In this document: piece by piece, positions 18,829-24,249 of the stretch | Layout of the letters: every line of letters begins with the position of its first letter | How positions within the stretch are numbered: the first letter of the stretch is position 1 | From: a bacterium | GTDB lineage: Bacteria > RBG-13-61-14 > DATKZS01 | Assembly: GCA_963674965.2 (NCBI GenBank) | Contig: CAXXFL010000005.1 | Coordinates: 224,001-288,000, forward strand | Length of the DNA stretch: 64,000 nt | Direction: 5' to 3' | The notes under the pieces: generated by a model | Seen by the model: the letters and a program-made list of their open reading frames with translations, nothing else | The model's database searches: none | What the model was told of the DNA's origin: nothing | Made by a program: the position numbers and the translations under genes

Positions 18829-19683
18829 TCAAGCCGCGGTCTCGGGACCGGGGCCGCCCTCGCCGATGGTTACCCGCCTTAGCTCGCCCTTGTTCGAGGT
18901 CTTGACCGCGTACATTAAGTTATCGGCTTCCTTGATCGCGTCTTGAGGGGAAGATGGAGCAGAAAGATAAGTCACCAGACCCACGCTGAAGGTCACCGGC
19001 CAGCCGCCTCGGCTCATGGCGTCCTCCAGTTTGGACCTTAGCCTTTGCATCGCCTCCATCGATTCTTCCTCCCCGGTCTCCGGAAGAAGAAGGGCAAACT
19101 CGTCGCCGCCCATCCGGGCGCCAAGGTCGGTGGACCGGATATCGCCCCGGATCGTTCCTCCCACCGCCGCCAGGAGCCTGTCGCCCTCGGGATGGCCGAA
19201 CTTGTCGTTAACGCTCTTGAAGTTATCCAGGTCGATATAGGACAGGGAAAGGGGACGCGAGTAGCGCCTGGCCCGCTCCAGCTCGAGATCGAGCCGCTCG
19301 GTGAAACCCACCCGGTTGGATATGCCCGTCAGGGGGTCCATCCTCGAGAGAAGGTACTCCCGGTCCAGGGCCTGCCTGATACGGGAAAGGGAGAAAACCA
19401 CGATCACGAAAAAACCGAACCTGACCCCCGCGTTCCAATAAAGAATGACCGCCGCGTCGTACTCGTGGCCGCTGAGGCGGTCCACCAGCGCCCAGGAGAA
19501 CATGCCTAAGATCGACATGAAGAACCCCGGCCACCGACCCACCAGCCAGGTCACCAGCGCGATGGGGATCAAATAGAAAATCGAGAAACTGAGTTGGTAA
19601 CCCGTGATATAGTCCAGAAGTCCCACCAGCCCCGTGAGTAAAATCCCGAGCGCCGAATATATTACGACTTTCCAATCCATCAT
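18829..19683 (-). CDS. Membrane diguanylate cyclase (GGDEF)
   Basis: DPLTG..NR, DLDNFKSVND.FGH..GD, RSTD I-site, GGDEF; four N-terminal TMs. Confidence 0.93.
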   Translation of the reverse strand: MMDWKVVIYSALGILLTGLVGLLDYITGYQLSFSIFYLIPIALVTWLVGRWPGFFMSILGMFSWALVDRLSGHEYDAAVILYWNAGVRFGFFVIVVFSLSRIRQALDREYLLSRMDPLTGISNRVGFTERLDLELERARRYSRPLSLSYIDLDNFKSVNDKFGHPEGDRLLAAVGGTIRGDIRSTDLGARMGGDEFALLLPETGEEESMEAMQRLRSKLEDAMSRGGWPVTFSVGLVTYLSAPSSPQDAIKEADNLMYAVKTSNKGELRRVTIGEGGPGPETAA

Positions 19684-19860
19684 GAAACCGCCCCTAAAAA
19701 TGCCCCCTCGGGCCAAGAGCCTCTTTAGAGCCGAGGCCGACGAGAAAGCCTAAAAATTTTAGCACGAACGGGCAATATATGGTAGATAATGGACACCTCC
19801 CTATTAGAACGTCCTTTCGGCTTGACACTATAAGGCCCGCGTCCTAAAGTCATCGGTGAA

Positions 19861-20601
19861 ATGGAACGGGGCAAGCGTTTACAGGTTAAGATACTCACTC
19901 CGGTAATGGAATTCCTCGAGAGGCGTCCGTTCCCGGTCACTTCCATTTTGAGGCTCCTGGCCAACGCGCCTTTCCTCTCGAGGAGACTGATGGTGCTGCC
20001 GCGGGCCTATATGGGGGCCTCGGCCTTCGAGATTCACGACGCGGACATGAAAACCGGGCGAATAGGCATCGGGGACGTCGAGGAGATCATGGCCGGCTCG
20101 AAGATCATCCATCTCCTGCACCAGACCCTGGCCGGCCGCGTGGGGGAAGAGGAAAAGAACCGGGCACTCTACGAGATGGGCGCGAGCCTTTGCAAGTGGG
20201 AGGTGAGCCAGGCCCTGGAGGGCGGCAAGTGGGCCCCCTCCGTCCTCGTTCCCCTCATCTTCAGCGGGAGGGTCCTGGACGAAATCGAGACCGACCCTCT
20301 TATGAGGCGCTTTTTCCAGAGCGTGATGAACATGATGAGCAGGCTGATCACCGACGAGGGGGGATGGGGTCACCTGGACTTCGATTTTTCCTCCCTTCCC
20401 TTCAAGGTCATGCTTTCCAACTCCCAGGAGGCCCGGTGGCTGGGAGGGTCCGACCGGCCCGTTTGCCATTTCTACGCGGGCATAGTGGCGGGCTACGCCT
20501 CGACCATCTCGGGCAAGCCCTTCCTCTCCCGTGAGGTCGCCTGCAAGGCCATGGGCGCCCCCAAGTGCGTTTTCGAGCTGACGCCGGCGGAAGATGAATA
20601 A
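19861..20601 (+). CDS. V4R (4-vinyl reductase) domain protein
   Basis: GWG, PVCHFYAG, EVACKAMGAPKCVF Zn-binding pattern. Confidence 0.85.
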   Translation: MERGKRLQVKILTPVMEFLERRPFPVTSILRLLANAPFLSRRLMVLPRAYMGASAFEIHDADMKTGRIGIGDVEEIMAGSKIIHLLHQTLAGRVGEEEKNRALYEMGASLCKWEVSQALEGGKWAPSVLVPLIFSGRVLDEIETDPLMRRFFQSVMNMMSRLITDEGGWGHLDFDFSSLPFKVMLSNSQEARWLGGSDRPVCHFYAGIVAGYASTISGKPFLSREVACKAMGAPKCVFELTPAEDE

Positions 20602-22057
20602 CGGGTCCGTCTCACCGCGTAGGAATACCCCCGGGGTATGGGGTTTCCACCCGGCCTCGACGGTGCTTCTCGCCTTCATGGCTTTTTTTCTTACCTCATG
20701 GGGCGGCCGTCCTCGTCCCGACCATATCCAGGGCGAGATGGCGGGCGAGGTCACGGCCTCGAGCGTCATACTTCAGACCCGGCTTACGGCGTCCTCGCCG
20801 CTGCCCGACAAAGACGTGCCCGGCGTCGAGGGTGAGGTCAGGTTCGAGATCGACACGGACCCGGCCTTTCCCGACCCGATAAGGACCGAATGGATGAAGG
20901 CCGTCGAGGAAAGAGACCACGTGGTCAAAAAGAAGATCGAGGACCTGAAGCCGGACGTCCTTTATTACTACCGGATCGAGTTCGGTCCCGGCCGTTCCGA
21001 CGCTAAGAAGGGACCGGCGCGGAGGTTCCGGACCTTGCCGGGCCCGGCTACCTCTCGTCCTTACCGCCTGGCGGTGGTCACGTGAATGAACTGGGACAAG
21101 TTCCAGTTCGGGACCAGGGCTTACAAGGGGGCGGACAAGGACCTGGGCTTTCCCGCCCTGGCGGCCCTGCGCGAGGCCCGGCCCGAGTTCATCGCCTTCA
21201 CGGGCGACAACGTCTATTACGACCACGGCGTTCCCGCCTTCACCGAGCGCTCGATGCGCCGCAAATGGCGCCGGACCTTTTCCTTTCCCCGCATGGTCGA
21301 GTTGATGGCCGAGGTCCCGGCCTACTGGCAAAAGGACGATCACGATTACCGCTATAACGACTGCGACAATACGGGAACCATGCCGCCTTCTCCGAGGCTG
21401 GGGCAAAGGATTTTTCTCGAACAGGTCCCGGTCATGGACCCGGCCCTTCCCCCGGCCCGGCCCTACCGGACCCACCGGGTGACAAGGGAACTCCAAATCT
21501 GGCTTCTCGAGGGAAGGGACTATCGAAGCCCCAACCGGCAAAAGGACGGACCAGACAAGACCATGTGGGGACTCGAGCAGAGAAAGTGGCTCACCGAATC
21601 CCTGTCCGAGTCCGACGCGGCCATCAAGCTAATCGTCTCGCCCACTCCCCTGATCGGGCCAGACGACGCCTATAAGCGCGACAACCACGTCAGCCCCGAG
21701 GGTTTTGGCCACGAGCGCGACCTGTTTTTCGCCTGGGCCAAGCAAAAGGGACTCGATAAAAAGGGGATGTACATAATCAATGGAGACCGGCACTGGCAGT
21801 ACCATTCCCGCCACCCGCTGGGCTTCGAGGAGTTTTCTGTCGGGACCCTCCACGACGCCAACGCCAGGATGGGCGTTGCCCCGGGCGATAAAAAGGGAAC
21901 TGACCCCGAGGCCGAAATCGAGCAATTCTACTCTTCCCCCGAGCCGTCGGGCGGGTTCTTGCTGGCGACGGTCATTCCCGACGGGACGGGCCAGGCCTCG
22001 CTCCTCCTCGAGTTCATGGACGAGCGGGGCAAGCTCATGTATAGGGTCGAGCGCTGA
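20594..22057 (+). CDS. phoD: PhoD-family alkaline phosphatase/phosphodiesterase interrupted by one in-frame TGA at 21083-21085 (candidate Sec codon)
   Basis: The ORFs 20594-21085 and 21086-22057 are in the same frame; N-terminal FN3-like part (YYYR...FRTLP); LAVVT*MNW; GDNVYYD, DDHD, GRDYRS and GDRH intact. Confidence 0.85.
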
Positions 22058-22173: not shown

Positions 22174-23976
22174 CTATTTCTCGAGTTTGCATCCCTTGGG
22201 AACGCGCCTGGTCGCCGGCTTCTTTTTGCCTTTCTTCCCGGCGGCCTGGCTGTTCTCGGGCCGCCACCATCCCAGTCGCTTGGTAATGGGAAGGCGAAGG
22301 TCGGAAAGGGCCCTTTCCGAGACGGTGGGACCGATGGGACACTGCCGCCTCTTGAACTCTGCCTTCATCAGCATCCTCATAATCGTATAAACCATGGCCG
22401 GGTCCTCGCCCCCCGCCACCATCTCCTCGACCGACATGCCCTTCTCGAGAAAACCCTCGAGCACTCGGTCCAGGTCGTCGTAGGGAGGGAGGGTGTCCTG
22501 GTCCTTCTGGTTCGGCCGGAGCTCGGCGGTGGGCGCCCGCTCGATGACGCTTTGGGGTATAACGTCCTTGCCGGCCTTGGCGTTATACCATTTCGCCACC
22601 TCGTAGACCTGCCTCTTATACAGGTCGACCAGGGGAGAGAAGGCCCCGCAGGTGTCGCCGTAAAGCGTCGAGTAGCCCACCGCCGCCTCGCTTTTGTTGC
22701 CCGTGGCCAGGACCATGGCTCCCAGCTTGTTAGAAAGCGACGTCAGGGTAAGCCCTCTCAGCCGGGCCTGAAGGTTTTCCTCCGTCACGTCCGCCTCCCT
22801 GCCGGCGAAGGCCTTGGCGAAACTTTTCACCGCCGCGTTGTAACACGGCTTGATGGGTACCTCGAGGAACTGAAGGCCCAGGTTTTTCGCCGTCTTTTTC
22901 GCGTCGGCCCTGGTCTCGCCCGAGGTGTAAGGGCCGGGCATGGACACGGCGGTCACGTTCTCGGGCCCGAGGGCCTCCCGAGCCACGGCGGCGGTAAGCG
23001 CCGAGTCGATCCCCCCAGATAATCCCAGGATGACGCGCTCGAATCCGTTCTTGCAAGCGAAATCGCGGGTGGCCAGGACGAGAGCGGAAAAGAGTTCCCT
23101 TTGTCCCTTGTGAAGCGGCTCGATGCGGGTATCGAGCGCGGCCGGCTTCTTCTTTTCCCTCGGCGCGAAGTCCAGCGTAATCCGGTCGGCCTTGCCCACT
23201 CTTCTCGGGGCCCTCCTGCTCGAGTGATAGGTCCTTTTTCTGTGCGACCTTAGCTCATCGAGGTCGAGGTCGGCCATGACCAGGTCCTCCGCGAAGGACT
23301 TGCCTCGGGCGATCACCTCGCCCCAACCGTCAACTATGGTGCTCGAGCCCTCGAAGATCGCGTCGTCCTGTCCCCCGACCGGGCCGACCATGACCACGGC
23401 CGCCGCGTCCTCCCTGGACCGCTCGATCATCAGGCCCTCCCTGACCGGCCGGTGGCCGAAATGGTAGGGCTCGTTCCAGAGGTTGACCAAAAGGTCTATC
23501 TCCGTGGGCCAAAGAGGATAGCCCGCGTCGTCGCCCACCGTCACCGCGGCCCGGAACCAATCCGTCTCGATCAACAGCGGCCTCTCCCCCGCCGAGAAAT
23601 AGCGCGTCTCGTCAAAGCGGCCGCAACAGAAAAGGTAGCGCTTCCTGGCCCATCCCAGAGACTTGCCTTTATAGAGCACGGCGGCCGCGTCGTGGAGGGC
23701 GTCGCCCGTCTCGATGCCTCCGACTATGACCAGCATGTCGGTCCTGGCCAGGCCTCGGGCTATCTTGTCCATGGACTCGGCGCACTCCCGCAAAAAGGAA
23801 CCCCGGAAGGCCAGGTCCTCGACCATGTACCCCGAGACGCACATCTCGGGAAAAACCAGAAGCTCGACGCCATGGGAGCGGGCCCGGCTTGCCACCTCGA
23901 GGATTTTTTCCACGTTGCCCTCGAAGTCGCCCGCTCGGGAGTTTATCTGTCCTATTCCTATCCTTAAAGACGTCAC
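22174..23976 (-). CDS. nadE: NAD+ synthetase with an N-terminal nitrilase-like domain
   Basis: GLSGGIDS, ENLQARLR, TGNKSE..VGYSTLYGD, PTAELRPNQKDQD, EFKRRQ; GTG start after an AGGGGG SD. Confidence 0.95.
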   Translation of the reverse strand: MTSLRIGIGQINSRAGDFEGNVEKILEVASRARSHGVELLVFPEMCVSGYMVEDLAFRGSFLRECAESMDKIARGLARTDMLVIVGGIETGDALHDAAAVLYKGKSLGWARKRYLFCCGRFDETRYFSAGERPLLIETDWFRAAVTVGDDAGYPLWPTEIDLLVNLWNEPYHFGHRPVREGLMIERSREDAAAVVMVGPVGGQDDAIFEGSSTIVDGWGEVIARGKSFAEDLVMADLDLDELRSHRKRTYHSSRRAPRRVGKADRITLDFAPREKKKPAALDTRIEPLHKGQRELFSALVLATRDFACKNGFERVILGLSGGIDSALTAAVAREALGPENVTAVSMPGPYTSGETRADAKKTAKNLGLQFLEVPIKPCYNAAVKSFAKAFAGREADVTEENLQARLRGLTLTSLSNKLGAMVLATGNKSEAAVGYSTLYGDTCGAFSPLVDLYKRQVYEVAKWYNAKAGKDVIPQSVIERAPTAELRPNQKDQDTLPPYDDLDRVLEGFLEKGMSVEEMVAGGEDPAMVYTIMRMLMKAEFKRRQCPIGPTVSERALSDLRLPITKRLGWWRPENSQAAGKKGKKKPATRRVPKGCKLEK

Positions 23977-24249
23977 TTTAGACGACCCCCTTTTTGCGTT
24001 TACCAATTTTGCCCGGCTTGCCTCGGGACGCGGCGCTCCCGACTTGAGAAAAGCGGCATATACAATGTACTATGGACTTGGCTCGGCGGTCAAGAATTTC
24101 CCGGCCCCGGACTCGATTTGCCTCGCGTCGGGATAACGGGTATACAGGATTTAATGGACTGAAAACGGCCTCGCCGCGGACGGGACCGGCCGCGATCAAG
24201 GCGCTCTTCTTTCAGGGATGGCCGCTCGGTGGACGACTCGGACTTTTAA

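Follow-up and report, generated by a model that had tools for sequence, protein, structure and literature searches.

We report a probable new selenoprotein family, in which a codon for selenocysteine (Sec) lies inside a gene for a PhoD-like phosphatase, a reading to which we assign a probability of roughly 0.6. The gene was found in a 64,000-nucleotide (nt) stretch of bacterial DNA, hereafter the window, which corresponds to C5:224001-288000 in a genome of 6.5 Mb and 7 contigs. It occupies positions 20594..22057 of the + strand and comprises 487 codons, with a single internal TGA and a terminal TGA at 22055-22057. The internal TGA at 21083..21085 (+), codon 164, is the candidate Sec codon, and according to the sequence, the alignment with relatives and the sequencing contigs it stands in the column that holds the Fe3+ ligand of PhoD proteins.

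Sequence and translation agree that the frame 20594-22057 (+) contains exactly one internal stop, the TGA at 21083-21085, which is flanked as RLAVVT-TGA-MNWDKF, and that its 487 codons are otherwise free of defects. The part that follows the TGA (21086..22054, +; 323 codons) is the catalytic part by translation, Pfam and phmmer, and carries the metal-binding motifs GDNVYYD (21203-21223), DDHD (21335-21346) and GDRH (21782-21793), all intact. An earlier inspection of the DNA letters, which we call the sequence-only reading, had described two open reading frames (ORFs) forming one 487-codon frame broken only by this TGA, three preserved motifs with no other decay and a GGTGG located 8 nt upstream of ATG 21086, and each of these statements proved accurate. 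The TGA that it had proposed to look for in sequencing data is also there: two runs, X1 (24,916 nt, depth 15.4) and X2 (16,688 nt, depth 17.8), yielded Logan contigs that span 20594-22057 and show 0 differences from it. These are independent contig sets of one sample, which may be the assembly's own source. The TGA is not an assembly slip, and the observation of an in-frame TGA is confirmed as real. Two additional runs, X3 and X4, hold small parts of the gene with the TGA outside their coverage, and none of the sequencing runs listed for the gene is an RNA run. Separately, X3, a soil metagenome from a different study, contributes a 250-nt contig that spans 20638-20887 with 1 difference; because it differs at one position from the N-terminal part of the gene, a near-identical strain occurs elsewhere.

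The predicted read-through protein opens with a hydrophobic helix at residues 20-35 (20651..20698, +), taken from an AlphaFold2 (AF2) model, which is a likely export signal or membrane anchor and is preceded by Arg-Arg at residues 9-10. This is followed by a PhoD_N domain at residues 49-147 (20738..21034, +; Pfam PF16655, 48.2 bits, cut-off 30) and by the Pfam PhoD domain PF09423 at residues 159-414 (64.7 bits, cut-off 27), a match that spans the TGA. The AF2 model, computed for the full read-through protein from an alignment of 50 sequences, has a predicted local distance difference test score (pLDDT) of 93.8 and a predicted template modeling score (pTM) of 0.89, and its top match in the Protein Data Bank (PDB) is 2yeq_A (E 1.9e-30, template modeling (TM) scores 0.70/0.66), with purple acid phosphatases next. 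In this model DSSP assigns the first beta-strand of the catalytic domain to residues 157-162 (YRLAVV; 21062..21079, +), upstream of the TGA, and the strand stops just short of residue 164. Since the Pfam PhoD match starts at 159 and the modeled strand covers 157-162, the break falls inside the catalytic fold, after its first strand. Pfam gathering scores and the predicted fold identify the product as a putative PhoD-like phosphatase, which would presumably be an active enzyme. The score against the NCBIfam PhoD equivalog NF058638 was 45.7 bits, where the cut-off is 1000; the protein belongs to a distant subfamily and is not a Bacillus subtilis-type PhoD equivalog.

A phmmer alignment to PDB sequences places codon 164 opposite a Cys in two structures. 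In 9uya this Cys ends 'GVVSC'; in 2yeq it ends 'FAFASC' and is chain residue 124, which we take to be Cys-180 of the precursor, an equation that holds only if the numbering offset equals the 56-residue signal peptide. In the PhoD structure paper (PMC4223295), Cys-180 is described as an Fe3+ ligand of B. subtilis PhoD, the C180A variant loses activity, and PhoD proteins are divided into two subfamilies, with Cys or with Asp as the ligand. The placement of the TGA at the iron-ligand Cys column, as put forward in the sequence-only reading, is borne out by the 2yeq alignment together with this paper. In the window gene this Cys/Asp column is UGA, and the site would have its ligand only if the codon is read as Sec or Cys.

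The genome contains the entire set of genes that the sequence-only reading had proposed to look for, selA, selB, selC and selD. The matches of selA (558 bits), selB (378 bits) and tRNA-Sec (69.5 bits) are all above their cut-offs, and the three genes form one head-to-tail cluster outside the window, at C4:210035-213487. The selD gene, also above its cut-off, lies at C1:1052858-1053775 and itself contains one in-frame TGA. Beyond selD, eight families were searched for TGA genes. In total, a single in-frame TGA occupies a known Sec position in at least seven other genes of the genome: SelD, FdhA (C3:523686-525695) with the context HCART-U-HAP, three AhpC/TSA genes (C3:241590-241988, C4:98843-99277 and C4:167771-168136) with FV-U-PTE, W-U-PYC and V-U-PFC among their contexts, an AhpD-like gene (C1:10896-11093) and MvhD (C1:1608108-1608476); thioredoxin (PF00085) yielded no in-frame-TGA gene in the genome. 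This genome is rich in selenoprotein genes, and selB is above the cut-off in all four other genomes of the same family. The PhoD-like gene is the sole PF09423 match in the genome of the window. A reassignment of UGA to Gly (NCBI code 25) was considered and rejected, as the gene and the genome stop at TGA and the known Sec genes have one TGA each.

A search with the 163-residue N-terminal ORF retrieved four metagenomic database proteins that terminate exactly at the TGA column: P0124 (161 aa, JGI contig of 7,819 nt, ending ...FRLAVVT), P0123 (148 aa, ENA contig of 800 nt, ending ...YRLAVTT), P0125 (136 aa, JGI contig of 1,375 nt, ending ...YRLAVVT) and P0126 (151 aa, ENA contig of 878 nt, ending ...YTLAVIT). 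A C-terminal counterpart, P0003 (321 aa), begins MNWDKFQFGTRAYKG like the second ORF of the window and is 74.5% identical to it. For P0003 as for P0124, the listed source is a single JGI contig of 7,819 nt, and their adjacency is deduced from this common source and size. The five N-terminal parts (the window and P0123-P0126) are 53-66% identical to one another and 37-54% (mean 45.6%) identical to 111 intact relatives, and an N-domain tree (54 rows, 124 columns) groups them as one clade (support 96/94). The trees of the N- and C-parts were made separately, as a mixed tree of non-overlapping fragments misplaced P0126. Identity between the window and P0124/P0003, taken as N-part over C-part, is 61/74.5 = 0.82, close to the 0.80 of the 111 intact relatives, and both halves are therefore under normal constraint. 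Since diverged sequences share the stop within one clade, it is old and inherited, and a conserved stop between constrained halves excludes a sequencing error and a recent pseudogene and requires translation through or across the stop. The site of the stop is thus more than chance, and the stop is not private to this strain, an outcome that the sequence-only reading had counted against itself: four diverged relatives end at the same column, in one clade. An exhaustive search of representatives returned no fragment ending at this column besides P0122 and P0126, and the 100 residues that open the post-stop part, used as a query, brought up no short fragments.

The segment behind the stop stands out as well. 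The first 15 residues are 100% identical between the window and P0003, and runs of 15 identical residues occur at only two places of their alignment (5/304 overlapping windows), the other being the catalytic SPTPLIGPDDAYKRDNHV block. In relatives with Gly at the TGA column (Gly-type), conservation of this first post-stop segment is 0.66, below the median of 0.75. The identity, seen in the single pair of window and P0003, would fit an added constraint on the RNA. As a side observation, four other proteins (P0072, P0087, P0104 and P0111) start at the Met after the column and are scattered among the Gly-type sequences in the tree; the N-terminal ORF search found no N-terminal partners for them, and either truncated gene calls or stops of independent origin may account for them.

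Folding of the RNA after the UGA, with nt counted from its U, revealed two mutually exclusive hairpins. The first is a 10-base-pair (bp) hairpin at nt 5-28 with the loop CAAG at nt 15-18 (21087..21110, +; -11.8 kcal/mol), which ties for top stability in a set of 108 distinct homologous positions; the remaining 107 have a mean of -5.8 kcal/mol (standard deviation 2.45), and 29 Gly-type sequences have a mean of -3.6 and a minimum of -8.2 kcal/mol after the column. Its loop is closer to the UGA than those of the seven reference Sec genes, which start at nt 20-29, and the hairpin would have to unwind with the ribosome on the UGA. The second hairpin, at nt 18-32 (21100..21114, +), resembles a selenocysteine insertion sequence (SECIS) and has a 5-bp stem, GUUCC/GGGAC, and the loop AGUUC at nt 23-27 (21105-21109). 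Once the first 12 nt are masked, as they would be by a ribosome, this hairpin is the minimum-energy fold (-5.1 kcal/mol). Its 11-mer CCAGUUCGGGA recurs in the hairpin that follows the UGA in the AhpD-like selenoprotein gene, where the loop AGUUC is at nt 20-24. The Prx3 hairpin has the loop AGUU, and the loops in the Sec genes of this genome are GGUC(U), GGGUC, AGUU, AGUUC and UGGAA. As a background, 41,914 TGAs were sampled: a hairpin of at least 5 bp with its loop starting at nt 19-30 follows 34% of them, GU occurs early in such a loop in 5.9%, and an AGUU loop in 0.14% (57). Energy alone does not discriminate, as 11% of 35-mers drawn at random from this GC-rich genome fold equally well, and the true SECIS regions of the genome range from -6.7 to -13.9 kcal/mol.

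We propose that the gene would give rise to one exported 487-residue PhoD-like metallophosphatase, in which codon 164 (UGA 21083-21085) would be decoded as selenocysteine by SelA, SelB and tRNA-Sec. A ribosome positioned at the UGA would have opened the first ~12 nt downstream, and the stretch that follows would fold into the small nt 18-32 hairpin with its AGUUC loop, to which SelB-GTP-Sec-tRNA would bind and deliver Sec. In the catalytic domain, the resulting Sec-164 would lie where the first strand ends, the place of the thiolate Fe3+ ligand of classical PhoD, and the metal site of the enzyme would be selenolate-ligated. We regard the fuller proposal as slightly better than an even bet, namely that a small exported PhoD-like clade uses Sec as a catalytic ligand of Fe3+ (or of another metal), that Sec was gained beside Gly-bearing relatives, and that this is the first selenoprotein among hydrolytic metallophosphatases.

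Several lines of evidence weigh against a Sec codon, among them the residue that the nearest relatives have at the TGA column. The best 120 of 2,971 hits from a search with the C-terminal ORF were aligned, and with the window's own protein set aside, 112 of the 119 have Gly ('VVTGMN'), two have Cys (P0065 and P0100; 'CMN') and five start at the following Met, so the nearest full-length relatives carry Gly here and not Cys. At the DNA level, 146 loci of relatives (L020-L165) were collected, and the 137 with a GDNVYYD-type motif were tabulated, L022/L025 and L023/L024 being overlapping copies of the same genes. Cys is found in 89 of them (TGC 80, TGT 9), Gly in 36 (GGC 20, GGG 11, GGT 5, GGA 0) and Asn in two (both AAC); the regular expression left ten unplaced, which by eye are eight Cys, one truncated Gly-type and one out of frame upstream. 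A stop occurs at the column in 0 of these 137 loci. The exhaustive search of representatives gave 147 proteins, of which 72 cover the column, with Gly in 40, Cys in 26, Ser in 2, and Glu, Ala, Asn and Thr in one each, indicating that G, C, S, A, N, E and T are all tolerated. The UGA does align with Cys in homologues, as is typical of selenoprotein genes, and these Cys homologues speak for Sec; the nearest relatives nonetheless have Gly. Two genomes of the same family (G001 and G002) encode intact Gly-type genes, and members of the Gly-type family conserve the Met that follows the column. Gly, which most close relatives have at the Fe3+-ligand column, marks a third PhoD type, beyond the Cys and Asp subfamilies named in PMC4223295.

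Other points on the same side concern the stop codon itself, its ancestry, the chemistry and the RNA. The stop of P0123-P0126 is evident from the protein ends, and its codon is presumed to be UGA. The pattern TGA-ATG-(A/C)AY...GDNVY[YF]D gave 0 matches in metagenome_contigs and 0 in genome_contigs, with the window itself matched once, so that no TGA-type gene was seen in 185,579 species-representative genomes. A search for relatives of P0003 returned 66 and 74 sequences, none above 58% identity and without P0003's own contig, and because these collections lack the contigs of the stop-type genes, the zero pattern matches say little about the stop codons of the clade. In a C-domain tree (51 rows, 331 columns) the window and P0003 form a pair (support 100/100) that is sister to Gly-type P0032 (98/91), followed by the Gly-type P0008, P0010 and P0011 (100/97), with the Cys-type 'CMN' proteins at the base or dispersed over the tree. 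The position of the clade is not settled by the N-domain tree (46/12). These sequences suggest that Sec would have arisen from, or beside, a ligand-less state, and not by a simple replacement of Cys by Sec. A path from Gly through Cys to Sec may be open, as Cys recurs inside the Gly radiation (P0065, P0100). PhoD Fe3+ is called redox-inactive in PMC4223295, and the usual advantage of Sec is not obvious at such a metal. The hairpin at the canonical position is weak (5 bp, -5.1 kcal/mol) and has a stronger competitor nearer the UGA, the AGUU-loop criterion was picked after the data had been seen, and Rfam returned chance-level matches only, with no SECIS family among them. These results leave a mixed verdict on the sequence-only reading. 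Its idea of Sec taking the place of a conserved catalytic Cys would not hold in this simple form, as 112 of the 119 top hits have Gly and the clade nests among Gly-type sequences. Its expectation of TGA in several independent genomes is borne out by half: a stop recurs in four other sequences, where the codon is presumed to be UGA, and no TGA-type gene was matched in the 185,579 genomes. Its overall interpretation as a Sec-PhoD is partly supported, with the column, the machinery, the shared stop and the hairpin in favor and the Gly relatives and the absence of TGA matches in those genomes against.

Two side observations concern the same alignments. A covariation count over 246 distinct sequences, which are related to one another, showed that a Glu two residues before DDH[DE] accompanies Gly at the column in 120 of 156 Gly-type sequences and accompanies Cys in 0 of 83, and that a Gln at this position is found in 78 of 83 Cys-type sequences and also in 30 Gly-type ones. 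The window (residue 246) and P0003 have Gln before DDHD, a position where Gly-type proteins have Glu as the consensus (109 of the 112 among the top hits). This pattern of Glu with Gly and Gln with Cys at residues 246 and 164 may mark a ligand swap. In addition, a homologue on L103, a contig from a metagenome-assembled genome labeled 'uncultured delta proteobacterium', is out of frame and contains stops upstream of GDNVYYD, probably because the copy is frameshifted or the assembly in error.

If the UGA acts as an ordinary stop, the locus might be a conserved split gene. Ribosomes would then terminate at the UGA and begin again at the AUG next to it (termination-reinitiation), and the enzyme would be assembled from two polypeptides, the first with the signal, PhoD_N and the opening strand of the catalytic domain and the second with the 323 residues of the catalytic part. 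The adjacency of TGA and ATG 21086, with the weak GGTGG 8 nt upstream, would permit such an arrangement and also speaks against a Sec codon. The Met conserved in the Gly-type family would have offered a ready restart codon to a nonsense change, the tolerant column and the Gly of the nearest relatives suggest that no special residue is needed there, and both halves appear as separate proteins in public gene calls. However, the break lies after the first strand within the catalytic fold and not at a domain border, and the GGTGG is a by-product of Val-Val codons that 2 of 28 Gly-type loci share. The C-terminal piece would be made without an export signal. Co-export of a folded partner requires the twin-arginine translocation (Tat) route, and at least two members of the clade, P0123 and P0126, have signal-like N-termini that by eye lack Arg-Arg, so a separately made C-terminal piece would probably not be exported with them. 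Moreover, UGA is decoded as Sec in at least seven genes of this genome, a SECIS-like hairpin is present, and the stretch just after the stop shows unusual conservation. We consider a split gene unlikely on this evidence, though the likeliest of the alternatives to Sec decoding.

A leaky UGA, read by a near-cognate tRNA (e.g., for Trp or Cys) independently of SelB and yielding a low level of full-length protein that perhaps sets expression, would likewise be consistent with a conserved stop, with constraint on both halves and with the several residues tolerated at the column, and the stable 10-bp hairpin right after the UGA could slow termination. Nothing points specifically to such leakage, however; a dedicated Sec system and a hairpin resembling a SECIS element of the same genome are at hand, and to our knowledge bacteria have few such conserved leaky stops, which makes this explanation improbable. 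Most improbable is a pseudogene or an error, that is, inactivation by a single nonsense mutation from GGA, TGC or TGT to TGA, or a miscalled base. The TGA is indeed one step from a Gly or Cys codon, it is present in no other species-representative genome among the 185,579 scanned, and the genes of G001 and G002 from the same family are intact and Gly-type. Yet two runs of one sample agree on it with 0 differences at 15-18x depth, the 487 codons have no other defect, relatives that have Gly at the column use GGA in 0 of 36 cases, and the stop position is common to four sequences that are 53-66% identical, form one clade and have normally constrained halves, so that the conserved stop already largely refutes this reading. 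Decoding of codon 164 as Sec is the reading that we retain.

The PhoD-like gene is preceded on the same strand by a V4R-domain gene (19861..20601, +; PF02830, 60.9 bits), the end of which overlaps its start by 8 nt (ATGAATAA), and this overlap suggests that the two genes are co-translated in one operon. The pair is flanked by a GGDEF gene (18829-19716, -) and, downstream, by a gene for glutamine-dependent NAD synthetase, NadE (22174-24006, -). V4R, GGDEF and NadE neighbors were not found in the 1.5-kb flanks of the G001 and G002 homologues, which is uninformative on synteny.

Full-text literature searches found no Sec-PhoD, with supplementary family tables, which could hold one, outside their scope. 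In the available portion of a 2026 review of 119 prokaryotic selenoprotein families and subfamilies (PMC13188914), the terms 'phosphatase', 'PhoD', 'PF09423' and 'hydrolase' do not appear, and nearly all known selenoproteins are described as redox enzymes or carriers of redox motifs. The main texts of deep-Sep (PMC12013277) and BSepDB (PMC13326102) make no mention of PhoD or phosphatase, and PP2C fusions are the only mention in the GOS selenoproteome paper. If our reading is true, a selenolate on the iron of an exported hydrolytic phosphatase would widen the known protein roles of selenium, which would here tune a non-redox metal center, perhaps together with a ligand swap between Glu-246 and residue 164. 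It would also tie selenium supply to the scavenging of organic phosphate and provide a natural Sec/Cys/Gly series at one metal-ligand position for studying how the PhoD site is tuned. Because every public gene call here splits these genes in half, such enzymes would have been missed in phoD surveys and selenoprotein catalogues alike.

Among known systems, formate dehydrogenase (Sec-Mo/W) and [NiFeSe] hydrogenase (Sec-Ni) are precedents in which the catalytic metal is bound directly by Sec in place of Cys, and a UGA-containing FdhA gene is present in the same genome as the window. Both are redox enzymes, whereas PhoD is hydrolytic and its Fe3+ redox-inactive. A second comparison is with UshA, a metallophosphoesterase. 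UshA-like selenoproteins are catalogued as NF041198 ('CxU') and NF049981 ('CxxU') in PMC13188914; the window protein has no match to these NCBIfam families even at E <= 1, and their Sec sits in the CxU/CxxU motif, whereas that of the window would sit at the metal-ligand column of the PhoD fold. B. subtilis PhoD (2yeq; PF09423 and PF16655), an Fe3+/2Ca2+ phosphodiesterase/alkaline phosphatase D, has the same two-domain architecture and fold, the GDxxY, DDH and GDxH metal motifs and an export-type N-terminus, and its Fe3+ ligand Cys-180 aligns with the UGA of the window. It differs in that the structural alignment gives ~18% identity, the ligand codon in the window is UGA, and the window protein falls in a 'T-G/C-M-N' subfamily with mostly Gly at this column. 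Closest are the Gly-type PhoD-like proteins, such as P0078 of Gimesia aquarii ('alkaline phosphatase D family protein') and those of G001 and G002, which are 53-61% identical in the catalytic part and resemble the window protein in length, motifs and the Met-Asn after the column. They have Gly in place of the stop, in most cases Glu in place of the window's Gln two residues before DDHD, and a much weaker hairpin behind the column at which the window protein would carry Sec.

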